Source of the DNA: Candidatus Poribacteria bacterium | Lineage (GTDB): Bacteria; Poribacteria; WGA-4E; WGA-3G | DNA length: 64,000 bases | Direction: 5' to 3' | Assembly: GCA_022821725.1 (NCBI GenBank) | Contig: JAJEDB010000115.1 | Span: 17,457-81,456, forward strand | In this document: positions 3,149-39,791 of the stretch, piece by piece | Position numbering within the stretch: the first letter of the stretch is position 1 | Layout of the letters: each line of letters starts with the position of its first letter | Program-made: the position numbers and the translations under genes | The notes under the pieces: model-generated | The model's input: the letters and a program-made list of their open reading frames with translations, nothing else | Databases searched by the model: none | Told to the model about the DNA's origin: nothing

Positions 3149-3157
3149 ATATTGACT

Positions 3158-3580
3158 ATGATCGTTTTTGACACTAATGTTATCTCGGAATTCATGAAGG
3201 ACAACCCTAACCAAATGGTTTTGGATTGGTTTGATGCACAATCTACAAATGATCTATTTGTAACCACTGTTACTGAAGCAGAGATTCTGACTGGTATTGC
3301 CCTCTTGCCCGATGGAAGACGAAAAAATAATCTCTTAGAATTCGCAGATAATATTTTTACGTCCTTATTTATTGGACGTGTTTTAGTATTTGATAGTAAT
3401 GCAGCGAACGTTTACGCCGAAATCTTTGCTCAACGATACGCAGCTGGTAGACCGATAAGCCAAGCCGATTGTCAGATTGCTGCAATTGCACGTTCTCATG
3501 GAGCTGCTGTCGCGACTCGAAACATTACAGATTTTGAAGGGATTGATGTGGAACTTATCAATCCGTGGGCCCATCTATAA
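3158..3580 (+). CDS. vapC: PIN-domain ribonuclease toxin VapC
   Basis: MIVFDTNVISEFMK start, TTVTEAEIL block and C-terminal ATRNITDFEGI are classic VapC/FitB PIN signatures. Lower GC than its neighbours. Confidence 0.85.
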   Translation: MIVFDTNVISEFMKDNPNQMVLDWFDAQSTNDLFVTTVTEAEILTGIALLPDGRRKNNLLEFADNIFTSLFIGRVLVFDSNAANVYAEIFAQRYAAGRPISQADCQIAAIARSHGAAVATRNITDFEGIDVELINPWAHL

Positions 3581-5162: not shown

Positions 5163-5444
5163 ATGCATACGGGTCCATATAAACCACTGAGGGACTTCTC
5201 ACAAAGACATCCAAATGCCAGATCAGCACTTGAGCATTGGTATGAATTGATAAGTGGAAGAAATTTTCGTTCAATTGCTGATTTGCGTGAGGTGTTTCCT
5301 CATGCAGATCGGGTTGACGGTTGGACAGTTTTTAATATTGGCGGTAACAAAGCTCGCCTTATAGCATTCATCCACTATGGGCGGCAGACGGTTTCTATCC
5401 ATCGTGTGCTGACACACTCCGAGTATGATAGATGGAGGCCCTGA
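5163..5444 (+). CDS. higB: HigB-type (RelE superfamily) mRNA interferase toxin
   Basis: 93 aa. VFNIGGNKARLIAFIHYGRQTVSIHRVLTHSEYDR matches the HigB_toxin family core. Confidence 0.75.
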   Translation: MHTGPYKPLRDFSQRHPNARSALEHWYELISGRNFRSIADLREVFPHADRVDGWTVFNIGGNKARLIAFIHYGRQTVSIHRVLTHSEYDRWRP

Positions 5445-5493: not shown

Positions 5494-5515
5494 GTAGTAG
5501 TGCGATTCATCGCAC
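5494..5515 (+). repeat. GTAG-headed hairpin (REP-like)
   Basis: gtagtaGTGCGATtcATCGCAC. Same architecture as the core of the MITE copy at 31775 (gtagtAGCGCAATtcATTGCGCT). Confidence 0.6.
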
Positions 5516-6035: not shown

Positions 6036-6749
6036 GTGAAAGACAGGTTGATCGTCGCATTGGATACGGACGATGGTGAAGATATTGACTGGTTATCGGG
6101 GACATTGATGGATACAGTCGGTTGGTTTAAGATCGGTTTTCAGGCACTGAATGCCCTTGGAAACGAATGTTTTCCATGGTTCAGCCAGAATGGATATCGG
6201 GTCTTTGTTGATCTGAAATTCCACGACATTCCGAACACAGTCGCACGCGATGTCGGCACGATGGCGAAACACGGGGCACGCATGATTAACATGCACGCCG
6301 CCGGTGGCTTTGAAATGATGCAGGCAGCGAGAGCAAGCGCAGATGATGCCGCCTACGATGCTAACCTCCGGAGACCTGTTCTTCTCGGCGTGACGATTCT
6401 GACGAGTATTGACGAAGCGGGTTTTCAACAAAACTTCGGATCAGAACGAGGGCTTACAGAACAGGTCGTCTATCTCGCACAGTTGGCACAGGCAGCCGGA
6501 TTGGACGGTGTCGTGGCATCACCCCTTGAAATTGAACCTATCCGTAAAGCGTGTGGTAACAAATTTTTGATTGTAACACCGGGAATCCGCCCAGAATGGG
6601 CGGAGACTGGCGACCAGCGGCGTATGACGACACCGGCGGAGGCGATTGAGCGAGGGGCGGATTATATTGTTGTCGGGCGACCGATTCTTGACGCCGAGGA
6701 TCCAGAGGAGGCTGTCTACAGGATCCTTCAGGAAATGAGAGGGGCATAA
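6036..6749 (+). CDS. pyrF: orotidine 5'-phosphate decarboxylase
   Basis: LIVALD, FVDLKFHDIPNTV (D-x-K-x-x-D-I-P-N-T), VVGRPI. Start moved to GTG 6036 behind AAGGAG (6022-6027). Confidence 0.9.
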   Translation: MKDRLIVALDTDDGEDIDWLSGTLMDTVGWFKIGFQALNALGNECFPWFSQNGYRVFVDLKFHDIPNTVARDVGTMAKHGARMINMHAAGGFEMMQAARASADDAAYDANLRRPVLLGVTILTSIDEAGFQQNFGSERGLTEQVVYLAQLAQAAGLDGVVASPLEIEPIRKACGNKFLIVTPGIRPEWAETGDQRRMTTPAEAIERGADYIVVGRPILDAEDPEEAVYRILQEMRGA

Positions 6750-6753
6750 GACT

Positions 6754-8190
6754 ATGAACATTGTGTGTATCTGTTTGGACACGTTTCGTGCAGACATTAT
6801 CGGTGAAGGTAAGAAATATAGCCACGTGCAGACCCCGAACCTCGATGCCTTAGCATCGGAGAGCGTCCGTTTCACACGGGCGTTTGGTGAAGGACAACCC
6901 ACACTTCAGATCCGTCGCGGCAACTTTACAGGGATGCGGAGTTTTCCGTGGCGGTATAACTTCGACCGGCGTGGACATTGGCACCACGCCCCAGGGTGGC
7001 ATAAGATCCCACCCGAACAGGATACGATCGCTGAAGTCTTACTGGAACGCGGGTATCTCACAGCGTTGATCGCGGATACGTATCACATGTTCAAGCCGAC
7101 AATGAATTTCTCGCGCGGGTTCGCGCATTTCGACTTCATTCGCGGACAGGAATCGGATAACTGGCACAGTGGGGATCCGAAGTTGATTGAGGCGCAACTC
7201 CGAAAACACGTCCGTGAACCCCTCAATTGGCAACGGCACGCTGGACTCGTCAATTACCTCTTGTCGCAACGACATCGGCAATCCGAAGATGACTATAGTT
7301 GCGCGCGCGTCTTCGGGGCCGCAGCCGACTGGCTTCAGGACAATCATACCGTCGGTCCTTTCTTCTTATGGGTGGATAGTTTCGACCCGCATGAGCCGTG
7401 GGATCCACCGGAGTCCTACGCAGATCTCTATTTTTCGGACTATTCGGGCAAGGATTTCATCACGCCGGGCAGTGCGAACGAGGGCGATGGACCTACGGAC
7501 GCTGAACGCCGCCGAATTGAGGCACTTTACCTCGGCGAAGTGACGTTTGTTGATAAATGGATCGGCGTGCTGCTTGACAAGATAGAGCAGTTGGGCATCC
7601 GAGACGAGACGCTGATTGTGCTCATGTCTGACCACGGCACGCAACTCCGAGATCACGGGAGTTTCGGAAAGGGACCGAACAAGTTACACCCCTTCAATAC
7701 GCAGTTAAATTTGATGATTCGGCATCCAGAGGGACCGCATGACAAGGAAGTTTTCGCGTTCGTGCAGAACCATGATCTGATGCCGACACTTTTAAATCTG
7801 CTTGACATTCCGTGCGGTTGGACGGATGGCGAGGATATGTGGCAGCTCGTCACACAGGAAAAGGCGTTCCTCCGGGAACGGATTATCACGGGTTGGGCAG
7901 GATTCATCACGGGCAATGCGCGCGGACGCGTCAGCGTGCGCGATAACCACTGGAACTTCTGCACTTCAGTCGGCTACAAAGATGAGAACGGCGATGAACT
8001 CTTTGATGTCCGGCACGATCCAGAGGAGAAGGTCAACGTCGCGAGTGACCATCCAGCGATCATTGCAGAACGGAGACGGGATGTCGAGGCGTTGATCGGA
8101 CAACCCTTACCCGGACATTTCATTGAAGTCTGCGATCCCGGGCAGGCACCCATGACACAGTGGCTTGAGAAGAAATTGGCCGATATGTAA
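6754..8190 (+). CDS. sulfatase-fold (alkaline-phosphatase superfamily) hydrolase with Thr at the nucleophile position
   Basis: CLDTFRAD, TPNLDALA, DSFDPHEPWDPP and LMSDHG blocks of the sulfatase family. The C/S-x-P-x-R motif reads T-L-Q-I-R. Confidence 0.75.
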   Translation: MNIVCICLDTFRADIIGEGKKYSHVQTPNLDALASESVRFTRAFGEGQPTLQIRRGNFTGMRSFPWRYNFDRRGHWHHAPGWHKIPPEQDTIAEVLLERGYLTALIADTYHMFKPTMNFSRGFAHFDFIRGQESDNWHSGDPKLIEAQLRKHVREPLNWQRHAGLVNYLLSQRHRQSEDDYSCARVFGAAADWLQDNHTVGPFFLWVDSFDPHEPWDPPESYADLYFSDYSGKDFITPGSANEGDGPTDAERRRIEALYLGEVTFVDKWIGVLLDKIEQLGIRDETLIVLMSDHGTQLRDHGSFGKGPNKLHPFNTQLNLMIRHPEGPHDKEVFAFVQNHDLMPTLLNLLDIPCGWTDGEDMWQLVTQEKAFLRERIITGWAGFITGNARGRVSVRDNHWNFCTSVGYKDENGDELFDVRHDPEEKVNVASDHPAIIAERRRDVEALIGQPLPGHFIEVCDPGQAPMTQWLEKKLADM

Positions 8191-9166: not shown

Positions 9167-9221
9167 GTAGGAACCTACACAAATCCGCGAAAAATGTAGT
9201 AACGGAGACCTTAAATCCTTT

Positions 9222-9321
9222 AGGACTTACGCAGGGCACTCTTTTGTAGCATAACCTGTTAGGTTGTGCCTTGGGACCAGCTGCGTTTTTTCGAGGATCC
9301 TCAGTCCACGTTTGGTTTGCG
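9222..9321 (+). mobile_element. MITE-like element, copy 1 (intact left TIR, degenerate right end)
   Basis: AGGACTTACGCA at 9222-9233, internal GTAG hairpin 9246-9269 (GCATAACCT gtt AGGTTGTGC). The right end is reduced to tttgcgt next to the stop of the downstream gene. Confidence 0.55.
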
Positions 9322-9324
9322 TTG

Positions 9325-10674
9325 TTATTTACTATCCGATCTCTGTCGCATTTGATAGACAAACATATTCGTCATGAACCGATAGACATCCGAGGAACGT
9401 CTTGCTGATAATGGCGCGCGGCTATCGATCTCCGCGGTCTCCATACTGCATAAATAATCGAGCGGACAAAACACAACTGCCAGACGATCTTTACCGAACC
9501 GCCCTGGTATTGAGATACCTTTAATGTATCGCCACTTATCGTTACCACCTTTATAGTCTGTCCCCCAAAACGTTGAGCCTCCAACAGGCGTTCTCTCCAG
9601 TTTGAAATAACATTGGAATACTTCATGTTGAATATTGAGCGTTGTCAGTGGATACTCTGGAAACACTGTGCGTAATTCGGTTTCTACGAGCGTTGCGAAC
9701 GATTTTTCGTTGCCACCATTTCCGCAGTAGTCGAAAAACAGCATACCGTTATAGTGAAGGATATATTTCCGCAGGGCTGCCCGTTCTGCGTCACTGAATC
9801 CCGATGTCTGTGAATTTCGGTCGGCGAGTTGCCGATAGGATACCGACATCGCTTGATCGTGTCCTGTCATTATCATGAGTGGCGCGTTCATGATATCTGG
9901 ATCCGTTAGCGGTAGCGCGCCACCTTCATAATCCATATCCGCGCTGATGGTTTTCACATGCTCTTGTAGCCACTTGATGAGCGATGGAATCGCTGTGGGG
10001 TCTTGCCACCAGTCGCTCATATCGTGCTTGAGGCGTATCAGTCGGATATGTCCGCGCACGACACCTCCATCTTCATCAATCATACTGCCGAGTTGCTCCC
10101 CGATCTCATCTTCGTAAGTGCCGACGATATCCGAGACCTCGTTCCCTCCGAAGGCGTCTTGTCCGGTGCCGCTGCCTTCCGTCAAATTACCGAGACCGCG
10201 GCTTGTGTCGGAACCTGCCGTGCCTGTTTTATCTCCGGGGGTGCTACCGAAGCCGCGCGTATTCTCAATTTCTCCGCTGCCTCTTTTAATGGTAGGGGAG
10301 TTCGCATCAATGAGCGAGGAGTCCGCGGAGGAGGGCAGTTTCGCTACGGTAGCGTCAGGCGGCGGCTCAAATTGTGGGGTGATTTGAACCTGGGGCAGTG
10401 CCGAAACAGAGGGTAACCGTTGTGAGGGACCGGGAAGCGATGACGCGTTCGCAGCGTCCTGTTGCACCGGAACTATTACTTTTTTCGGGATCTGTATCTG
10501 CTGTGTGGGTGAAACAAACTCCACAGCGAAGCTATCTGTTTCCTGCTCCACCAGCGGTTTCAATAACCATATCGCGATTGCAATGATTGCAATGGTATGT
10601 CCCCCTAAAGCGAGTAGCAGTGCCCTGTTTCTTCGTTGTGTGGCGTAGTATTTCTTGATCGTGCGGGTGTTCAT
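9325..10674 (-). CDS. membrane-anchored DUF4159-like protein
   Basis: N-terminal TM (LLLALGGHTIAIIAIAIWLL) and a Pro/Ser/Gly-rich linker. The C-terminal block IRLKHDMSDWW...LMIMTGHD...LRKYILHYNGMLFFDYCG matches the DUF4159 pattern from memory. Confidence 0.55.
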   Translation of the reverse strand: MNTRTIKKYYATQRRNRALLLALGGHTIAIIAIAIWLLKPLVEQETDSFAVEFVSPTQQIQIPKKVIVPVQQDAANASSLPGPSQRLPSVSALPQVQITPQFEPPPDATVAKLPSSADSSLIDANSPTIKRGSGEIENTRGFGSTPGDKTGTAGSDTSRGLGNLTEGSGTGQDAFGGNEVSDIVGTYEDEIGEQLGSMIDEDGGVVRGHIRLIRLKHDMSDWWQDPTAIPSLIKWLQEHVKTISADMDYEGGALPLTDPDIMNAPLMIMTGHDQAMSVSYRQLADRNSQTSGFSDAERAALRKYILHYNGMLFFDYCGNGGNEKSFATLVETELRTVFPEYPLTTLNIQHEVFQCYFKLERTPVGGSTFWGTDYKGGNDKWRYIKGISIPGRFGKDRLAVVFCPLDYLCSMETAEIDSRAPLSARRSSDVYRFMTNMFVYQMRQRSDSK

Positions 10675-10764
10675 GAGGATTTCTCTATTGCCATTTGGTT
10701 AGAGTTTGTTTTTGCACTTTGAATATTATACCATTTCTATTTGAATATATTTCATTGGAAACTT

Positions 10765-10788
10765 GTAGCATAGGCTGTTAGCCTGTGC
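10765..10788 (+). repeat. GTAG-headed hairpin (REP-like)
   Basis: gtaGCATAGGCTgttAGCCTGTGC. Same loop and flanks as 9246-9269, with compensatory stem changes. Confidence 0.6.
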
Positions 10789-10911
10789 CAGCGTAGTTCC
10801 TTTCAGAAGGTCCAGTAATGCGATATTTATTCTCAGAAATGGTATTATTTCACCTTGTGGAGCAGGACCGTAGGCATAGGCGGGAGCCTAATCTTGTGAT
10901 GAATCAAGGCT

Positions 10912-22570: not shown

Positions 22571-22600
22571 GTAGGCGGGGTTTGGAACCCCGATATTTTT
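22571..22600 (+). terminator. GTAG-headed hairpin plus T-run (REP-like terminator)
   Basis: gtagGCGGGGTTtggAACCCCGatattttttat between the cmk stop and the plsC start. Confidence 0.5.
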
Positions 22601-25674: not shown

Positions 25675-25698
25675 GTAGGTGCGGTTTCTAACCGCACC
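25675..25698 (+). repeat. GTAG-headed hairpin (REP-like) between convergent genes
   Basis: gtaGGTGCGGTTtctAACCGCACC, identical to the core of the MITE copy at 35111-35134. Confidence 0.65.
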
Positions 25699-26798: not shown

Positions 26799-26840
26799 AG
26801 ATATTCTCCAAATGTGAGTGTGATGAATTTTGAATTCCTT

Positions 26841-26932
26841 AGGACTTACGCAATTCCCTGGGTAGGGTCTTTCACCAAACCATATCTACGGCGTGGTAAA
26901 TGTCGGTAATTCTGTGATTTTGGATAAGTCCT
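26841..26932 (+). mobile_element. MITE-like element, copy 2 (right TIR with two mismatches)
   Basis: AGGACTTACGCA 26841-26852 and TGGATAAGTCCT 26921-26932. 92 bp, intergenic. Confidence 0.55.
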
Positions 26933-26982
26933 GCTCCTTATATTCTACCACATCTGAGAAGATATTGCAAATTGGGTAGGGT

Positions 26983-31614: not shown

Positions 31615-31729
31615 GATAGTCTTTTTTGTTAGTGATACCACCCACACACTAAAGCGTGAAGTTTCGGTTTCTGAGCAACTGCGCGATTTTCAGAAATAAT
31701 ACCTTTGCCCTGTCCAATCCTTTCCAATT

Positions 31730-31849
31730 AGGACTTACGCAGCTTGCTCGTTTTCGTGCGCTCTTTGGTTCGTAGTAGCGCAATTCATTGCGCTTTCTTG
31801 GGAAATATCTCGTCAATTTTGGCACGGAAGCCAATTTTGCGTAAGTCCT
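31730..31849 (+). mobile_element. MITE-like element, copy 3 (perfect 12-bp TIRs)
   Basis: AGGACTTACGCA 31730-31741 and TGCGTAAGTCCT 31838-31849, with internal gtagtAGCGCAATtcATTGCGCT. CCAAT occurs on both flanks. Confidence 0.7.
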
Positions 31850-31978
31850 GCCAATGAAAGGTGTCTACAGTCCGCAAGTTGAAGCACGGAGGTTTGACGC
31901 CAGGACGTTAAAAATAAGTATATACCATTACCGAGTTTATTGTCAAGTTTAAATTTTTTAGCATCTCTCACCTAAAAC

Positions 31979-32007
31979 TTGACGCAATGGAAATTTTGTG
32001 GTATTAT
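31979..32007 (+). promoter_or_regulatory. sigma70-type promoter, TTGACG-17-TATTAT
   Basis: TTGACG 31979-31984, 17-nt spacer ending TGTGG, TATTAT 32002-32007. MITE copy 4 starts 9 nt downstream. Confidence 0.55.
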
Positions 32008-32015
32008 ATATTAAT

Positions 32016-32136
32016 AGGACTTACGCAGTCTGCTTTTTTGTAGCACAAACTTTCCAGTTTGTGTCGGAAGTAACGTGTGTTTTTGCGAGAATTCCCATCT
32101 CAGAGAACGCGCTATAGTCAAAATTGCGTAAGTCCT
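32016..32136 (+). mobile_element. MITE-like element, copy 4 (perfect 12-bp TIRs)
   Basis: AGGACTTACGCA 32016-32027 and TGCGTAAGTCCT 32125-32136, with internal gtaGCACAAACTttccAGTTTGTGt. ATTAA-type flanks on both sides. Confidence 0.7.
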
Positions 32137-32316
32137 GTATTAATACAAACTGCCGCTTACCAGATTTTAGGAAAGGGCAGCCTCGGTTGTTAATTAAGGT
32201 TATAGTTTCTAAAGGGAGTGTAGGTGTGCTACCCATCCCACGTTTTTGTGTTTAATTTATAGGATAGTTTTCAAGGTTTAACGTTTGTATGAGAACCAAA
32301 AGGAGAAATTCTATCT

Positions 32317-35019
32317 ATGTATTACAGTAAATATATCAAACCCATCATCTTCGCACTCAGTATCTTTATAGTCATTACAATGGGTGCGTTTACGAGCGTT
32401 ATAGCGGATGAACATTCCAACACGGCGGAAGAAGCGGAGGAAACAGCGGAGACCGCTGACGAGGCTGAAGCGTCTGAAGAAACATCGCAAGCAGCAGCAC
32501 CGGTGAGGCTTGAGAGCCTCGTTGTTGTGGGTAGCCGTGCGCAACCGCGTTCCGTCTTGGATTCGCCAGTACCGGTCGATATTGTGTCAAACGAATCCTT
32601 TGAAAAGCAGGGGGGCGCGGATCTACCCGATCTGCTGAGAGCTTTGGTGCCCTCTTATAATGTCAATACGCAACCGATTAGCGATGCGTCAACAGTCGTC
32701 CGTCCAGCGAATTTACGGGGACTTGCCCCAGACCATACGCTGGTACTGGTTAACGGTAAACGGCGACACCGTGCCGCAGTGATTCACTGGCTCGGGAACG
32801 GTTTGTCTGATGGCTCACAGGGACCTGACCTGGCGCCTATTCCCGCAATTGCCCTGCAACAGGTAGAGGTCCTCCGTGATGGTGCCTCCGCACAATATGG
32901 GTCGGACGCTATTGCAGGTGTGATGAATTTTCGATTGAAAGACAGTCACGAAGGCGGTTCGTTTGAATTTAAACCCGGTATCTACCAATACGGTGACGGT
33001 CGACAGTTTGCTGTCGCTGGTAACATCGGTTTAGGGAATCCAGACGCCTGGAGTAACCTCAGTTTTGAATACGGTGGTGCAGATCCGACCATCCGGTCTG
33101 TCCAACGTAATGATGCTATAGCCTTGATTAATGCAGGCAATTTCAGTGTGAAAGACCCGGCGCAAATTTGGGGACAGCCGATTATAGAGAATGATGTCAA
33201 ATTGTTTGCCAACTACGGTGCCACCCTCACGGATACTATCGACTTCTATGGACATGCCAACTACGCTCGTAAGCGAGTCGAAGGTGGATTCTATTTCCGT
33301 AACCCAAACACCCGGGGCGGTGTGTTTAGCAGCACCGGTGGAGATACGTTGCTCGTCGGGGATTTGCGGGGTTTGACAGACGAAATGGCAGCTTGGGAAA
33401 CCCGAAAGCAGGCAGCAGAGGCTGCTGGACAGGAGTTTACCGAACTCTCACCGCACGAGGCTGACGATATTCCGATAAACAACCACGTTCCGGATCCCGC
33501 ACGGTTACAAGCCGTCAAGAGTGACCCGAATCTATTCACATTCCAGGAAATGTTCCCAGGCGGATTCACACCCAGATTTGGCGCATTCATGTGGGATAGT
33601 TCCGTCGTCGTTGGCGTTAAAGGCACTGCCCTGGAAGATGAATTAGGCAAACCCTTAACGTGGGATCTGAGCGGCTCTTTTGGACGGAATCATGCCGATT
33701 TCTTTATCTTCAACACTGTCAATGCTTCCCTCGGACCCGATACACCCACGTATTTTGATCCGGGCGACTATATCCAGACGGATTATAACCTCAACTTTGA
33801 TGTAACCTATCCGTTGAGCGACATGGTGTTCCTCGCTTCTGGTTTGGAATATCGCAACGAGGGATTTGAAATCATAGAGGGTGAACGCGAGTCGCATCAG
33901 ATCGGACCTCTTGCTGTTCAAGGCTTCACTGCAGCCTCTAACGGATTTTCAGGGTTCAGCCCGGTTGCCGCAGGCACGTGGCACCGTTCCAACGTCGCGA
34001 TGTATCTGGAAAGTGAAATCAGACCGATTGAGCCGCTCCTGATCGCGCTTGCTGTGCGTGGTGAACAATTTGAGATTTTCGGTAGCACCCTGAACTATAA
34101 AGCCGCCGCAAACTATAAGGTTACGGAAACAATGCGGTTGCGGGGAAGTTATAGTACCGGGTTCCGCGCACCGACACCGGGACAGCAAAATACGTTCAAC
34201 ATTACCACTGAATACGATTTTGTGAAGGGGGATCTCGTCAATAACGGAACAATTCCTTCCACTAACGCTGCTGTGGGTGTTGTGACAGGCAAGGAAGATA
34301 ACTCGCTTGACCCGGAAACATCAAATAACTTCACAGGTGGATTCACCGTCGATATTTTGGGCGTAAATTTCACGGTGGACTTTTTTGATATCCGGCTGAA
34401 AAACCGGTTATCTGTGTCACAAGACTTTACATTGACCGATTCGCAGAAGACGCAGCTCATCGCTGAAGGTGTAACGAGTGCGGCGAATCTGGAGCAATTC
34501 CGGTTCTTTATCAATGACTTCTCTACGACAACCAATGGTATTGACTTTGTTATTACAGCACCAATACCCAACGGAAACCTCATCGCCGTGTATAACTTTA
34601 CGAATACCACGGTTACCGAGTTCAATCCTCAGACACTGGACGATCATCGAATCAGGGAACTGGAAGAGAATTTACCTAAACACCGCGCCAGTCTGACTGC
34701 CTTTCAATCCATAACGGATGTGTGGGGTGTGCTCGGGCGTGCCAGTTATTTCAGCGGTTGGTTCGATTCTGAAGATTACTTACAGAATCCAGATGTGTCA
34801 GGCACTGGAGAATACTCTGGAAAGGTGATTGTCGACCTGGAAACCACTTACACTGTGGGATCGGGATTGGCACTCACGCTCGGTGGAAGAAATATCCTGA
34901 ATACCTATCCCGATGAAAATCCGAATGGTGCTGATTCTGTTGGTAACAAATATGGGCAGTTCAGTCCCTTCGGTTTTGATGGGGCATACTGGTATGCGAA
35001 AGTCGGATATAGTTTCTAA
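32317..35019 (+). CDS. TonB-dependent outer-membrane receptor, copy 1
   Basis: Signal peptide, acidic linker, TonB-box/plug LESLVVVGSRA...VEVLRGASAQYGSDAIAGV-type block, 900 aa, C-terminal ...KVGYSF. Confidence 0.9.
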   Translation: MYYSKYIKPIIFALSIFIVITMGAFTSVIADEHSNTAEEAEETAETADEAEASEETSQAAAPVRLESLVVVGSRAQPRSVLDSPVPVDIVSNESFEKQGGADLPDLLRALVPSYNVNTQPISDASTVVRPANLRGLAPDHTLVLVNGKRRHRAAVIHWLGNGLSDGSQGPDLAPIPAIALQQVEVLRDGASAQYGSDAIAGVMNFRLKDSHEGGSFEFKPGIYQYGDGRQFAVAGNIGLGNPDAWSNLSFEYGGADPTIRSVQRNDAIALINAGNFSVKDPAQIWGQPIIENDVKLFANYGATLTDTIDFYGHANYARKRVEGGFYFRNPNTRGGVFSSTGGDTLLVGDLRGLTDEMAAWETRKQAAEAAGQEFTELSPHEADDIPINNHVPDPARLQAVKSDPNLFTFQEMFPGGFTPRFGAFMWDSSVVVGVKGTALEDELGKPLTWDLSGSFGRNHADFFIFNTVNASLGPDTPTYFDPGDYIQTDYNLNFDVTYPLSDMVFLASGLEYRNEGFEIIEGERESHQIGPLAVQGFTAASNGFSGFSPVAAGTWHRSNVAMYLESEIRPIEPLLIALAVRGEQFEIFGSTLNYKAAANYKVTETMRLRGSYSTGFRAPTPGQQNTFNITTEYDFVKGDLVNNGTIPSTNAAVGVVTGKEDNSLDPETSNNFTGGFTVDILGVNFTVDFFDIRLKNRLSVSQDFTLTDSQKTQLIAEGVTSAANLEQFRFFINDFSTTTNGIDFVITAPIPNGNLIAVYNFTNTTVTEFNPQTLDDHRIRELEENLPKHRASLTAFQSITDVWGVLGRASYFSGWFDSEDYLQNPDVSGTGEYSGKVIVDLETTYTVGSGLALTLGGRNILNTYPDENPNGADSVGNKYGQFSPFGFDGAYWYAKVGYSF

Positions 35020-35049
35020 CCTATCTCGTGAAGAGTAATTTTCGCAGAT

Positions 35050-35075
35050 GGCGCGGTTTGCAATAAAACCGCGCC
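35050..35075 (+). terminator. hairpin after the first receptor gene
   Basis: GGCGCGGTTTgcaataAAACCGCGCC, 31 nt after the stop. Confidence 0.5.
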
Positions 35076-35090
35076 TATTCCATTTAAATC

Positions 35091-35180
35091 AGGACTTACG
35101 CACTCCCCCGGTAGGTGCGGTTTCTAACCGCACCGAATCCTGTGAAAACGAGTGAAATTTGGTCATTTTGCGTAAGTCCT
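35091..35180 (+). mobile_element. MITE-like element, copy 5 (perfect 12-bp TIRs)
   Basis: AGGACTTACGCA 35091-35102 and TGCGTAAGTCCT 35169-35180. The internal REP at 35111-35134 is identical to 25675-25698. TAAAT on both flanks. Confidence 0.7.
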
Positions 35181-35245
35181 ATAAATTTAATGTTCCGCTT
35201 TAGATAATTGTATCTTTTCACCTGAAAGATGAAGGAGCTTCATTC

Positions 35246-37936
35246 ATGAAAGGCGGACTTGATTGTAAAAAGGTGATGCTTTGGACGCATGTTGTTTTGG
35301 CGGTTTTTATGGGGTTGGTGTCTGTAGCAATAGCAGAAGAGACTGAGGTAGAATCAAGCGAAACAACATCTGAGCAAGAAGTCATAACGTTGGAAGAGAT
35401 GGTTGTGGTTGGGACGCGTGCCAAACCGCGTTCGATCCTTGAATCTGCGGTACCCATTGATGTTTTACCGAGTGCAGACTTCGTAAAACAGGGAGGCGCA
35501 GATCTCCCTGACCTGTTAAGAAACTTAGTACCCTCCTATAACGTTAATGCACAACCGATCGCTGATGCCGCGACTGTTGTCCGTCCAGCGAATCTACGCG
35601 GATTGGCACCAGATCACACGTTACTGCTCGTTAACGGCAAACGTCGCCACCGGGCTTCTGTGATTGCATGGCTCGGAAATGGGGTGTCTGATGGGGCACA
35701 GGGTGCTGATCTTTCTCCGATTCCGTCTATTGCCCTGAAACAGGTGGAGGTGCTGCGAGACGGAGCGTCGGCGCAATACGGTTCTGATGCGATCGCAGGG
35801 GTCATGAACCTCCAGCTCAAAGATAGTTATAAAGGTGGGACTTTTGAAATTAAACCCGGTATTTTCCAAGCCGGTGATGGTCTTTCATACGCTCTCGCTG
35901 GGAATATCGGTGTGGGACGAGAGGATCTCTGGACGAACCTGAGTGTAGAATACGGCGGCATGAATGAGACAGATCGGTCTATACAGCGAGATGATGCCGC
36001 CGCGCTTATGAGTGCTGGAAACACAGATGTCGCTGATCCCGCCCAACCGTGGGGACACCCTATTATTAGAGATGACATCAAGCTTTTCGCTAACTACGGG
36101 GCAGGCATTACCGATGACATTAAGTTCTACGGTCATGCGAACTACGCGCAGAAAGAAGTTGAAGGCGGTTTCTACTTCCGAAATCCTAATACCCGCGGTG
36201 CCGTGTTTAGTAACGATGGCGGTAAGACACTACTTGTCGGGAATTTGCGAGGTTTGACAGCGGAAATGACGGCGTGGGAGGCACGAAGGCAGGAAGCGGC
36301 GGCTGCCGGGCAAGCGTTTACCGAACTGTCTCCTCACGATGCTGACGATATCCCAATAACGAACAACGTTCCAGAGGCTGCTGCCTTGCAACAGGTTTTT
36401 TCTGACCCGAATCTATTCACATTCCAAGAGCTCTTTCCCGGTGGGTTTACGCCCCGCTTCGGTGCTGATACCCAAGATGCTTCGCTCCTTGTTGGATTGA
36501 AGGGAACGGTCGCGGCGGACGTGGGATGGGATTTAAGTGCTTCTTATGGACGACACGCCTCCGATTTCTTTATCAGAAATACGGTCAATGCCTCGCTCGG
36601 ACCGGACACACCGACTGAATTTGATCCAGGCAATTATATCCAAGCGGATACGAACATTAACCTTGATTTGACGTATCCATTGCACGATAGGGTGTTCCTC
36701 GCTTCTGGTTTGGAATATCGAACAGAGACCTTTGAAATTGTGCAAGGACAGATTGAGTCTTGGGAAATCGGTCCCTTGGCAAGCCAAGGATTTAGTTCAG
36801 GTTCCAATGGGTTCCCCGGTTTTAGTGATATTGCCGAAGGGAATTGGACCCGGTCTAACTTCGCTGGCTATTTGGAGAGTGAGTTGAGACCCGTCGATTT
36901 TTGGACGATTAATGCCGCTGTCCGGGGTGAGTATTTCGATGATTTTGGGAGCACAATCAACTATAAAATCGCAACGAGCTATGGTATTACCGACACGCTC
37001 AAGTCATTGCTTCCGGTGGGTCCTGGTGTTGACCTAAGGGCGCGCGGTAGTTACAGCACCGGTTTCAGGGCACCCACACCGGGACAGCAAAACGCCTTTA
37101 ACGTCACAACGGAATTCGGTGAGAACAATACGCTCGTCAATAAGGGAACGATTCCTTCCACACATGGTGCCGCACGTTTGGTCGGTGGTAAGACACTCGC
37201 GCCGGAAAAGTCAAAGAATTTTACCGTTGGAACGGTGGTCAGTCACGCGATTGTGAGTATCACTGTCGACTACTTCAATATCACGGTGGAGGATCGGTTA
37301 GCACCTTCAAAGGATTTCAACCGTGGGACAGATATTACTGAGGCACACATTCAGCAACTTGTGGCTGAAGGTATCACGAGCGCAGGGAACTTGCAAGAAT
37401 TCCGGTTCTTTACCAATGAATTTGAAACGAGCACGCAAGGGATTGATGTAATTCTCACGGCACCAGTATTGGAGGGTGCGCTGAGTCTCGCTTACAACTA
37501 TACCGGAACGGAGGTAACCAAACACAATCCCGATATTCTCAACGAGGTCCGTATCAACCTCATACAGGAAGGAATTCCGCGCCATCGCGGAAATGTGACA
37601 TTAACCCAAGCCATCGGCAACAGTCTGGGGGTATTGGGCAGAGTCAATTACTACGGTCCTTGGTACGAGAACGCTGTCGGTGCACAAACCTATGCCAGCG
37701 CGTTTCTGGTGGACCTTGAAGTGAGTTACGCAGTCGTTGAGGACTTGGGCATTACAATTGGTGTGAATAATGTTCTCAATGTAGAACCGGATAATATTAC
37801 TTCGGCAGAGGGACCTCCAGTGCCTTTCGATATTAAAGAATTTCCAGCCAGAATCGTTGGTAGACCCTTCGGTGAGTATAGTCCTTATGGGTTTGGCGGT
37901 GCGTTCTATTATACCAAAATTGGTTACAGTTTTTAG
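35246..37936 (+). CDS. TonB-dependent outer-membrane receptor, copy 2 (tandem paralog)
   Basis: Collinear with copy 1. LEEMVVVGTRA plug, 896 aa, C-terminal ...KIGYSF. Confidence 0.9.
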   Translation: MKGGLDCKKVMLWTHVVLAVFMGLVSVAIAEETEVESSETTSEQEVITLEEMVVVGTRAKPRSILESAVPIDVLPSADFVKQGGADLPDLLRNLVPSYNVNAQPIADAATVVRPANLRGLAPDHTLLLVNGKRRHRASVIAWLGNGVSDGAQGADLSPIPSIALKQVEVLRDGASAQYGSDAIAGVMNLQLKDSYKGGTFEIKPGIFQAGDGLSYALAGNIGVGREDLWTNLSVEYGGMNETDRSIQRDDAAALMSAGNTDVADPAQPWGHPIIRDDIKLFANYGAGITDDIKFYGHANYAQKEVEGGFYFRNPNTRGAVFSNDGGKTLLVGNLRGLTAEMTAWEARRQEAAAAGQAFTELSPHDADDIPITNNVPEAAALQQVFSDPNLFTFQELFPGGFTPRFGADTQDASLLVGLKGTVAADVGWDLSASYGRHASDFFIRNTVNASLGPDTPTEFDPGNYIQADTNINLDLTYPLHDRVFLASGLEYRTETFEIVQGQIESWEIGPLASQGFSSGSNGFPGFSDIAEGNWTRSNFAGYLESELRPVDFWTINAAVRGEYFDDFGSTINYKIATSYGITDTLKSLLPVGPGVDLRARGSYSTGFRAPTPGQQNAFNVTTEFGENNTLVNKGTIPSTHGAARLVGGKTLAPEKSKNFTVGTVVSHAIVSITVDYFNITVEDRLAPSKDFNRGTDITEAHIQQLVAEGITSAGNLQEFRFFTNEFETSTQGIDVILTAPVLEGALSLAYNYTGTEVTKHNPDILNEVRINLIQEGIPRHRGNVTLTQAIGNSLGVLGRVNYYGPWYENAVGAQTYASAFLVDLEVSYAVVEDLGITIGVNNVLNVEPDNITSAEGPPVPFDIKEFPARIVGRPFGEYSPYGFGGAFYYTKIGYSF

Positions 37937-38081
37937 GAATCAGACGGTTTTTATTCACACTGTCAAAGGTGGAAAGATCCAGTTCCATCAATTTATTTTT
38001 CCATAATACTTGCAATTATAGATATTACGCATGCTGCCTCCGGCTCCGCTGGAGCGGTATGTCTATAGAGAGGAAATAAAA

Positions 38082-38918
38082 ATGAGCAATCAGAACCGAG
38101 ACGCAGAATATACAATGGGCCGCAGCGCAGAAGAAACAGAACGTTTAATCGAGCAATCACAACTCTATGACGATGTGACACGGCGTTTTTTTCTCAGGAG
38201 CGGCATAGCGAAAGGGATGAAGGTCCTTGATGTTGGAAGTGGTGCCGGGGATGTGGCACTCACAGTCGCCGAATTTGTCGGTCCCGACGGCACGGTTATT
38301 GGGGTAGATGTGAACCCTGATATTCTCAAAACAGCGCAAGACCGAGCGGATGCCGCGGGGTTTTCAAACGTTGAATTCATCGCCGGTGATGCCCGAATCC
38401 TTGAACTTCCAAACGATTTTGATGCCATCGTGGGCAGACTTGTCCTGCTGTATATGGCAGACCCAGCGGAAGCCCTTAAAAAGTTAGTTACCCATCTCCG
38501 CAGCGGCGGTATTGTTGCCTTTCAGGATACTGAACTTTCGCTCTACCGGACTGTAACACATCCGGCGACACCCCTGATTAACCAGTTGATTGAATGGGGG
38601 CTCGCGGTATTTGAACGTTCAGGCGCACATCTTGGAATGGGCATGGATCTTTACAAGACCTTTGTTGAGGCGGGATTGCCCGAACCGAGTTTACATTTTG
38701 AGACACCGATGGGTGGCCCTGAGGACTGGCCCGGGTTTGAGTATCTCGCGAACAGTTTCCGAAGTCTCGTTCCGCTGATGGAGGCTTATGGGATTGCCAC
38801 GGCTGAGGATGTAGATATTGACACACTCGCCGAGCGCATACAGGCGGAAGTCGCTACATCGAAACGGCCCCTCTTGTTGCCACCCCATATCACGGCGCAT
38901 ACGTCTCTACCAGCATAG
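38082..38918 (+). CDS. class I SAM-dependent methyltransferase, copy 1
   Basis: Motif I VLDVGSGAGDVA and DAIVGRLVLLYM. Start moved to ATG 38082 (A-rich context). Confidence 0.75.
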   Translation: MSNQNRDAEYTMGRSAEETERLIEQSQLYDDVTRRFFLRSGIAKGMKVLDVGSGAGDVALTVAEFVGPDGTVIGVDVNPDILKTAQDRADAAGFSNVEFIAGDARILELPNDFDAIVGRLVLLYMADPAEALKKLVTHLRSGGIVAFQDTELSLYRTVTHPATPLINQLIEWGLAVFERSGAHLGMGMDLYKTFVEAGLPEPSLHFETPMGGPEDWPGFEYLANSFRSLVPLMEAYGIATAEDVDIDTLAERIQAEVATSKRPLLLPPHITAHTSLPA

Positions 38919-39791
38919 ATGGTGCCACGCATGGCGAAAAATAACGCAGGCAGCTTACACACGCCACATCGCGATGCCACCTATACGTTAGGGCGCACCT
39001 CACACGAAACAACGCGCCTCATTGAGCAGTCAAAAATCTATGGGGAATCGACGCGACGGCTCTGTGAGCGTGCCGGTATAACGCAGGGGATGCGGGTCCT
39101 CGAAATCGGGAGTGGTGCGGGTGATGTCGCGCTCACCCTCGCTGAACTCGTCGGACCGACAGGACAGGTGATGGGTGTAGACATCAACGCCACAATTCTT
39201 GACACCGCGCGCCAACGAGCCACCCATGCCGGCGTGCGAAATGTGGAATTTATTGCAGGCGATGCGCGAGGGCTTACCTTCGCGGAACAATTTGATGCGA
39301 TTGTTGGACGGTTTGTCTTGATGTATATGGCGGATCCACGAAACGCATTCGCGAAATTGATGACCCATTTAAAGCCGGGCGGCATTGCCGCCTTTCAAGA
39401 GCCAGAATATACGCTCTATCCCGCGCTTTTACATCCCGATACGCCCCTCGTAAACCAACTGATTCGATGGATTTTGGACGTGTTTGAACATTCCGGTGCC
39501 CATCTTGACATGGGGGTTGGGCTTTATCGCGCTTTTGTTGACGCGGGTTTGCCGCCACCAACCATGCATCTGGAATCGCCTATCGGTGCCGCCAAAACTT
39601 GGGCAGGATACCGATACATGGCAACGATCTTCCAAAGTCTCCTGCCCCTCTTAGAGAAATATGGGCTGGCGACAGCAGAACAGGTCGATGTGGATACATT
39701 AGCCGCACGGCTTCGAGAAGAGGTGCTCGCATCGAAACGTCCATTTTTCTTGCCGTTGCATATAACCGCGCATGCAACGCTTCCAACCTAA
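38919..39791 (+). CDS. class I SAM-dependent methyltransferase, copy 2 (tandem paralog)
   Basis: Motif I VLEIGSGAGDVA. Collinear with copy 1. ATG abuts the preceding TAG (alternative start at 38931). Confidence 0.75.
   Translation: MVPRMAKNNAGSLHTPHRDATYTLGRTSHETTRLIEQSKIYGESTRRLCERAGITQGMRVLEIGSGAGDVALTLAELVGPTGQVMGVDINATILDTARQRATHAGVRNVEFIAGDARGLTFAEQFDAIVGRFVLMYMADPRNAFAKLMTHLKPGGIAAFQEPEYTLYPALLHPDTPLVNQLIRWILDVFEHSGAHLDMGVGLYRAFVDAGLPPPTMHLESPIGAAKTWAGYRYMATIFQSLLPLLEKYGLATAEQVDVDTLAARLREEVLASKRPFFLPLHITAHATLPT

Follow-up and report, generated by a model that had tools for sequence, protein, structure and literature searches.

Miniature transposable elements bounded by inverted repeats (MITEs), the IS701 family of insertion sequences (ISs) and the individual elements ISPlag1 and ISAba11 are already known. 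Bacterial MITEs such as Correia, RUP, ERIC and MaeMITE are short, non-coding and intergenic; they share terminal inverted repeats (TIRs) with ISs, are flanked by target duplications, have stable predicted folds, reach high copy numbers and are polymorphic in presence or absence (PMC3184786, PMC10969869). We analysed five repeats with the same properties in a stretch of 64,000 nucleotides (hereafter the window) from a Candidatus Poribacteria bacterium (assembly GCA_022821725.1, contig JAJEDB010000115.1, positions 17,457 to 81,456). Unlike bacterial MITEs in general, the window elements have a shared part of only 13 nt, the interiors of their subfamilies are unrelated, and the same tips are found in many phyla and in Methanosarcina. 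With a probability of roughly 0.9, these repeats are non-autonomous MITEs of at least three subfamilies, bearing ISAba11/ISPlag1-type tips, that have been recently mobile in a Poribacteria chromosome.

Among described elements, Nezha of Anabaena/Nostoc (Zhou et al. 2008), the most familiar MITE of cyanobacteria, is of a similar size class, has ISNpu3 as its partner and was supported by comparison of empty and filled sites (PMC3184786). The window elements resemble Nezha in size class, in sharing their tips with an IS family and in their empty and filled sites. However, Nezha is 130-170 bp long with the 10-bp direct repeat CATTATCTAC (PMC6042816), whereas the window elements are 90-121 bp long with a 5-bp repeat; they therefore represent a different family. 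By a full-text literature search for the 12-nt arm of the window elements, AGGACTTACGCA, we reached ISPlag1 of Planktothrix agardhii, an element of the IS701 group with a length of 1306 bp, a 337-aa transposase and a 29-bp TIR starting with CAGGACTTACGCA (PMC2464740). For ISAba11, a 5-bp direct repeat has been published (PMC7885321). The literature searched contained no description of a MITE in Poribacteria or of the present subfamilies, and no report that MITEs bearing such tips of 13 nt extend over many bacterial phyla to an archaeon.

The 12-mer AGGACTTACGCA had eight exact matches in the window, at 9222 (+), 26841 (+), 31730 (+) and 31838 (-), 32016 (+) and 32125 (-), and 35091 (+) and 35169 (-); about 0.008 would be expected in 128 kb (both strands, uniform model). 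When up to 2 mismatches were allowed, there were 12 matches, a number reached by none of 100 shuffles. Pairing of the matches defined five elements, c1 to c5: c3, c4 and c5 are perfect inverted pairs (12/12 in the arms), c2 has a decayed right arm and c1 a degenerate right end. The 12-mer search and the positions of open reading frames (ORFs) thus bore out the initial annotation of this DNA, made from its letters alone, which had listed five intergenic copies at these positions, three of them with perfect TIRs. All five are non-coding and measure 90-121 bp between the outer ends of the arms, or 92-123 bp with the tips; no ORF lies within any of them and no transposase is encoded. The layout of an element is a 5-bp target duplication, Y-AGGACTTACGCA ... 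TGCGTAAGTCCT-R, and the same 5 bp repeated. Counting the outer variable base (T/C on the left, G/A on the right) as part of the element, the TIR is YAGGACTTACGCA, 13 bp rather than the 12 bp first assigned. Because this Y/R tip had been left out of the element, the flanking repeats had appeared to be duplications of about 5 bp with 1-2 nt of slop; the duplications stand, and the slop disappears once the tip is counted.

In a multiple alignment of the five copies, only the arms were common to all (mean column identity 57%). Based on similarity of the interiors, the copies fall into three subfamilies, A (c1/c4), B (c2/c5) and C (c3), whose interiors are mutually unrelated; the MITE character proposed initially is retained, while the single family is replaced by three subfamilies. 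These interiors matched copies in Poribacteria metagenome-assembled genomes (MAGs) only, except that of c3, for which there was one match, in another MAG.

Three copies have perfect arms and a 5-bp repeat on both sides. c3 (31729-31850, + strand) consists of T, 120 bp and G, and is flanked by a perfect duplication, CCAAT at 31724-31728 and 31851-31855. c4 (32015-32137, +) consists of T, 121 bp and G, with ATTAA at 32010-32014 and 32139-32143. c5 (35090-35181, +) consists of C, 90 bp and A, and lies between perfect repeats of TAAAT (35085-35089 and 35182-35186). The remaining two are decayed. c2 (26840-26933, +), an old member of subfamily B, reads T + AGGACTTACGCA ... TGGATAAGTCCT + G, with 10/12 positions (2 mismatches) preserved in the right arm TGGATAAGTCCT, and its flanks, TTCCT (26835-26839) and CTCCT (26934-26938), match at 4/5 positions. 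c1 (9221-9329, +) has the left tip T and a perfect left arm, and its left two thirds aligns to two other Poribacteria copies (L037 and L028). Its right end had been placed at 9321 and called degenerate; it is indeed degenerate, with the best candidate, TGCGTtgttatt, a few bases further on (9318-9329, 7/12), abutting the stop codon of a minus-strand gene (9325-10674). A further degenerate relative claimed at 10865-10877 was not upheld: it lacks a partner arm as well as any similarity in the interior, and we judged it a chance match. The only related feature in its vicinity is a solo hairpin at 10763-10789.

To compare empty and filled sites, we aligned the window with four syntenic loci from related genomes (L205-L208; receptor identity 91-96%). 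At the c5 site, L205, L206 and L207 had no insertion; their sequence there is CCATT-TAAAT-TTATG, in which TAAAT is present once. Likewise, L205 and L207 had an empty c3 site with one CCAAT, the c4 site was empty in L207, and the c2 site was empty in L206 with one CTCCT. In L205 and L207, the c2 site was filled by a copy with the same decayed right arm as in the window, so that this insertion predates the split of its carriers. At the ATTAA of the c4 site, L205 carried a member of the c3 subfamily, 147 bp long (6673-6819), whose target duplication is perfect. The same ATTAA site (window 32009-32014) was occupied in L206 by a 206-bp composite (6608-6813). Because different copies occupy this pentamer in the window, L205 and L206, the site was hit independently. 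Relatives also carried copies that are missing from the window, at 14316-14437 in L206 and 14822-14941 in L208. In L208, a different decayed copy (1423-1575) adjoins the c2 site.

Joints without an element were also present in assembled sequencing data. Contigs of runs X2 and X20 joined 31723 to 31851, skipping 127 bases at c3, with 5 letters that fit both sides; contigs of runs X2 and X3 joined 32008 to 32138 (129 bases skipped at c4), and run X3 joined 35089 to 35190 (about 100 bases skipped at c5). The decayed-arm c2 is common to three genomes, and the perfect-arm c3, c4 and c5 are strain-specific. Since old copies are decayed and young copies perfect, the arms appear to be kept for transposition and not for a host function. 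These empty and filled sites among close relatives indicate recent mobility. A lack of further copies, or of target duplications at empty sites, had been named in the initial annotation as counting against the family; neither holds, because further copies were found in many other genomes, including about 20 Poribacteria MAG loci, and the single pentamers in related Poribacteria genomes confirm the duplications.

The abundance of the elements was apparent from word depth in the best-matching sponge metagenome: about 1177 for c3, 620-720 for c4 and about 4060 for c5, with 27-29 for unique flanks. The depth over copies was 25-145 times that of the unique flanks (assembler depths from a mixed community, in which strains may mix). 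From this excess, the copy numbers would be in the tens to low hundreds, to which several strains may contribute. The window is part of an 85-kb metagenome scaffold. Sequence of the window was present in sponge, coral and marine metagenomes, and orthologues of the first TonB-dependent receptor of the window, at 86-88% identity, carried the name Candidatus Poribacteria or that of the sponge Geodia barretti.

We further searched one genome per species for both exact 12-mer arms positioned 66-96 nt apart, a spacing that skips elements such as c4 (97-nt interior), and obtained at least 119 stretches. The matches listed came from many cyanobacteria, Poribacteria, Undibacterium and other Burkholderiales, Gammaproteobacteria and Anaerolineae, as well as Moduliflexus, Desulfobacteraceae, Pyrinomonadaceae, a Daviesbacteria MAG and two Methanosarcina. 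Among these listed matches, 126 copies had enough flank, and 92 of them showed perfect 5-bp duplications in the register TSD5-Y-arm...arm-R-TSD5 (TSD5, 5-bp target-site duplication); re-paired flanks gave 1.3 and other offsets at most 17. In the same copies, the tip was a pyrimidine on the left in 124/126 and a purine on the right in 125/126. The duplicated pentamers are AT-rich. These results identified the 5-bp flanking repeats as genuine footprints of transposition, made by a cut staggered by 5 bp.

Individual copies in distant hosts had the same structure. In Methanosarcina, two loci (L089 and L117) had identical arms with perfect duplications, TGATA and AGCCT, respectively; in the MAG of Candidatus Daviesbacteria (L074), a member of the candidate phyla radiation (CPR), the arms were also identical and the duplication was shifted by 2 nt. 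As a possible vehicle of spread we considered viral contigs: the 2.9 million contigs of IMG/VR yielded only four MITE copies and two transposase relatives (L214-L219), a yield that hardly points to phages as a major carrier.

The same termini bound transposase genes. A copy of ISPlag1 on plasmid AP017993.1 (37212-38517) is exactly 1306 bp long; its termini are C-AGGACTTACGCA and TGCGTAAGTCCT-G, with ACAGT on both sides. Its 337-aa protein scored 408 bits against NCBIfam transpos_IS701_2 (cut-off 250), matched Pfam DDE_5 and DDE_Tnp_1, and contains the published CAIRWKIEEFHREIK motif. The transposase family is large, with at least 7252 matches at E <= 1e-10 among 8000 candidates scored. From metagenomes we picked 80 IS loci on protein similarity alone (55-77% identity). 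Both arms were located 1054-1394 bp apart in 71 of the 80, the other nine being cut by contig ends, and both were exact in 67 of these 71. In addition, an IS on a Paraburkholderia plasmid (57% transposase identity) has the same arms with the duplication ACCTC, plasmid-borne Acinetobacter (47%) and Chondrinema (42%) elements have the same arms, and ISAba11 of Acinetobacter baumannii ATCC 17978 (30%), also on a plasmid, has them with the duplication CATAT. The tips and the duplication length of the window elements are thus identical to those of transposase-bearing ISs down to 30% transposase identity. According to Rieck et al. 2012, conserved TIRs and 5-bp repeats are reportedly a feature already noted across the ISAba11 family, and ISAba11 itself is said to have been shown experimentally to transpose. 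The Acinetobacter element of 47% identity lies on A. baumannii pAba5845a (L211; NZ_CP023035.1, 5589-7590), a 9.9-kb mobilizable plasmid, about 400 bp upstream of an annotated blaOXA-72, and has the same 12-mer ends.

The window elements agree with the ISAba11/ISPlag1 group in the 12-mer and Y tip, in the 5-bp duplication and in AT-rich targets; they differ in length (90-121 bp versus 1054-1394 bp), in encoding nothing and in their unrelated interiors. Past the 12-mer, all that the ends of ISs and MITEs have in common is a weak A-rich tendency at positions 13-15. The two kinds of element also differ in how their tips combine. In the 67 IS copies (L125-L204), the two tips were concordant with each other (TT 44, CC 22, CT 1), whereas the tips of the 126 MITE copies among the matches listed assorted independently (left/right on the top strand: TA 35, CA 33, TG 30, CG 25). 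We found no description of this difference in the literature searched.

In the mechanism that we propose, each element is bounded by inverted copies of the 13-nt YAGGACTTACGCA, the sequence in which DDE-type ISs of the ISAba11/ISPlag1 group, within the IS701 family, terminate. Both tips would be recognised by a transposase of this group provided in trans, which would excise or copy the element. Insertion at an AT-rich pentanucleotide by cuts staggered by 5 bp, followed by repair, would then generate the 5-bp target duplication. We infer that the Poribacteria host contains, or contained until recently, such a transposase, and that the 13-nt tips are what this enzyme needs. Over many bacterial phyla and Methanosarcina, the terminus of 12 nt is unchanged even at a transposase identity as low as 30%, and the interiors of MITEs are unconstrained, which suggests that the end-recognition site of this transposase group is unusually small and rigid.

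Several observations weigh against the interpretation as MITEs mobilised by the ISAba11/ISPlag1 group. No transposase of the group was found in the window, in the 8 kb upstream on the contig or in some 290 kb of further DNA from Poribacteria; its absence from the window, as initially annotated, was confirmed by tblastn with the ISPlag1 transposase, which gave no match. Because none was found in the DNA searched, the autonomous partner in the Poribacteria lineage is itself one that we infer. The wider set gave a similar picture: in the 119 genome loci listed, a search for arm pairs 200-4000 bp apart with matching duplications recovered no full-length IS, nor did a motif scan, and tblastn of the ISPlag1 transposase against the same loci matched nothing but 31 aa of a fragment from Stenomitos. 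Compared with 84 IS-bearing loci (L121-L204), the interiors of the window copies matched only in the 12-mer and 4-5 A/T bases (about 16 nt); since the interiors are unrelated to the sampled ISs, the window copies are not simple internal-deletion derivatives. A perfect 5-bp duplication was present in only 14 of the 60 testable metagenomic IS copies, among them the long-contig L135, L137, L143 and L146, and was missing from another long-contig copy, L142. This low rate is probably due to chimeric assembly at repeats on short contigs. The scan for MITEs required exact 12-mers, so the invariance of their arms is partly imposed by the search; that of the IS arms is not, as the IS loci were found via the protein. 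Finally, the right junction of c4 has one extra base, T at 32138, or, alternatively, the duplication is the 6-bp TATTAA.

Each of the five window copies carries a GTAG-tagged hairpin in its interior. It is located on the + strand near the left arm in 5/5, in agreement with the common internal polarity noted in the initial annotation. The c3 hairpin (31772-31795, +) reads GTAGTA-GCGCAAT-TC-ATTGCGC. In c4 (32040-32063, +) the hairpin is GTAG-CACAAACT-TTCC-AGTTTGTG, with the same module in c1 at about 9246-9270; stems of this c1/c4 type covary (AACC/GGTT, AGAC/GTCT, AAAC/GTTT, AGGC/GCCT). That of c5 (35111-35133, +) is GGTAG-GTGCGGTT-TCT-AACCGCAC, and an identical hairpin without MITE arms is present at 25675-25697 (+). 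Further solo hairpins on the + strand are found at 5494-5515 (c3 type, with compensatory changes in the stem), 10763-10789 (c1/c4 type) and 22571-22592 (a variant). A hairpin search of the window gave 6, compared with 0-5 (mostly 0-2) in 20 shuffles. In one copy from another genome (L077), the module after GGTAGG was swapped for a longer one. All nine window hairpins are on the + strand, which has positive GC skew; a replication-strand bias was not borne out at other Poribacteria loci, where strand and GC skew were the same in 12 cases and opposite in 10.

The published description of GTAG repetitive extragenic palindromes (REPs) fits the window hairpins (PMC3733652). Both the interior and the solo hairpins share with them the GTAG tag, a palindrome of 7-9 bp and a short loop (PMC3733652), and the window stems covary; unlike GTAG REPs as described, those of the window also occur nested as modules in DDE-type MITEs. 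A scan of ten small window ORFs against Pfam detected no RAYT/Y1 transposase. The window modules also resemble small dispersed repeats that, according to Elhai et al. 2008, are reportedly nested in Nostoc elements.

c3, c4 and c5 are close to TonB-receptor genes, two tandem paralogues encoding TonB-dependent receptors (32317-35019 and 35246-37936). A sigma-70-like promoter match at 31979-32007 (+), annotated initially as a good promoter, was retrieved as TTGACG-17 nt-TATTAT with an extended TG (10/12, a match to the consensus only), and is conserved in the empty-site relative L207. The insertion site of c4 is 1-2 bases past the -10 box, and c4 starts 8-9 nt past the promoter match. It is plausible from these positions that c4 is transcribed in the receptor leader, with the start at the edge of c4 and a stem-loop of -46.8 kcal/mol. 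On the minus strand there is a second sigma-70-like consensus match, TTGACA-18 nt-TATACT (31917-31946, 11/12); this promoter, if used, would leave the divergent gene (30376-31614/31647) with c3 in its leader. As side effects, the leaders of the two flanking divergent genes are probably altered by c4 and c3 and gain strong stem-loops from them. The only metatranscriptome with this region consisted of contigs from a different strain. One such contig, from a strain without c3, spans the c3 site and ends near 31900-31920, close to the predicted start, which is suggestive only. c3 itself has a terminator-like hairpin with a T run at its right end (31819-31834), and many copies in other genomes terminate in ...TTTTGCGTAAGTCCT.

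Could the elements be structured cis-regulatory RNAs (leaders, riboswitch-like elements or small RNAs) tied to the TonB-receptor genes, with the arms as a closing stem? The folds of c3, c4 and c5 had z-scores of -5.1 to -7.0 against shuffles, c4 begins just past a good promoter match, and related sequences are present in metatranscriptome contigs. However, these z-scores are largely due to the arms and one small hairpin, no Rfam 15 family matched at the gathering score in the whole window, and the interiors are unrelated among copies. Moreover, orthologous receptor loci at 92-96% protein identity lack the elements, and identical arms with 5-bp duplications stand beside unrelated genes in many phyla. 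We therefore consider such regulatory RNAs most improbable. The clustering around the TonB-receptor genes, as originally reported, is correct in position; a functional association did not hold, and because the relatives' loci lack insertions, long AT-rich spacers and reuse of sites account best for the clustering. Proximity to these genes looks incidental rather than a dedicated regulatory role.

The interior hairpins raise another possibility, that the repeats are of the REP/REPIN type and were moved as single-stranded hairpins by a RAYT (an IS200/IS605-like tyrosine transposase) and not by a DDE enzyme. The GTAG palindrome, a hallmark of GTAG REPs (PMC3733652), is present in 5/5 window copies and in 29/129 copies across taxa among the matches listed; the same hairpins occur solo at 5494, 10763, 22571 and 25675, and their stems covary. 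Yet the hairpin is missing in the other 100/129 of those listed copies, the arms are identical to those of DDE-type ISs, and the ten small ORFs scanned included no RAYT. Whole elements, in addition, show exact 5-bp duplications, whereas target duplications are not known to us as an accompaniment of REP/RAYT transposition. An origin of this kind may account for the hairpin modules of the interiors; it does not account for the whole element, for which we regard it as highly unlikely. Immobile relics, that is, paired ends left by in-place internal deletion of a full-length IS, do have precedents: Planktothrix contains 197-bp and larger ISPlag1 remnants of deletion origin (PMC2464740), and we found an 811-bp ISPlag1 derivative in L121. 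The window interiors, however, have no similarity to IS sub-termini, the interior of each subfamily recurs at many loci and genomes and at 25-145 times the unique depth, and the young copies specific to a strain are short already, with duplications that are perfect. Apparently, relics of this kind account for the window copies with very little probability.

Going beyond the non-autonomous MITEs of the window, one may imagine a pan-prokaryotic MITE superfamily, sampled by the window copies and defined only by the 13-nt tip that ISAba11/ISPlag1-group transposases recognise, this tip being sufficient for mobilisation, into which unrelated interiors, including self-spreading GTAG hairpins, have been captured repeatedly. 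We offer this extension as tentative and rather doubtful. If it is true, DDE cut-and-paste and hairpin/HUH-type systems are nested, and may carry each other across genomes and phyla. At the level of strains, the elements account for part of the structural variation in Poribacteria, an uncultured phylum of sponge symbionts, and their presence or absence provides ready markers for strain typing. For TonB-dependent receptors, the practical message is negative, as the repeats are not a regulatory signature of these genes.

Some neighbouring features deserve mention. A strong terminator-like hairpin (35050-35075) follows the first receptor gene, just ahead of the c5 site. Downstream of the receptors there is a second pair of tandem paralogues, two class I methyltransferases (38031-38918 and 38919-39791); in L208, unrelated genes take the place of the second receptor and the methyltransferases. 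Elsewhere in the window, a PIN-domain protein (3152-3580) and a HigB/RelE-like toxin (5163-5444) are encoded, probably halves of toxin-antitoxin pairs, and the c3-type solo hairpin is located immediately downstream of the HigB gene.

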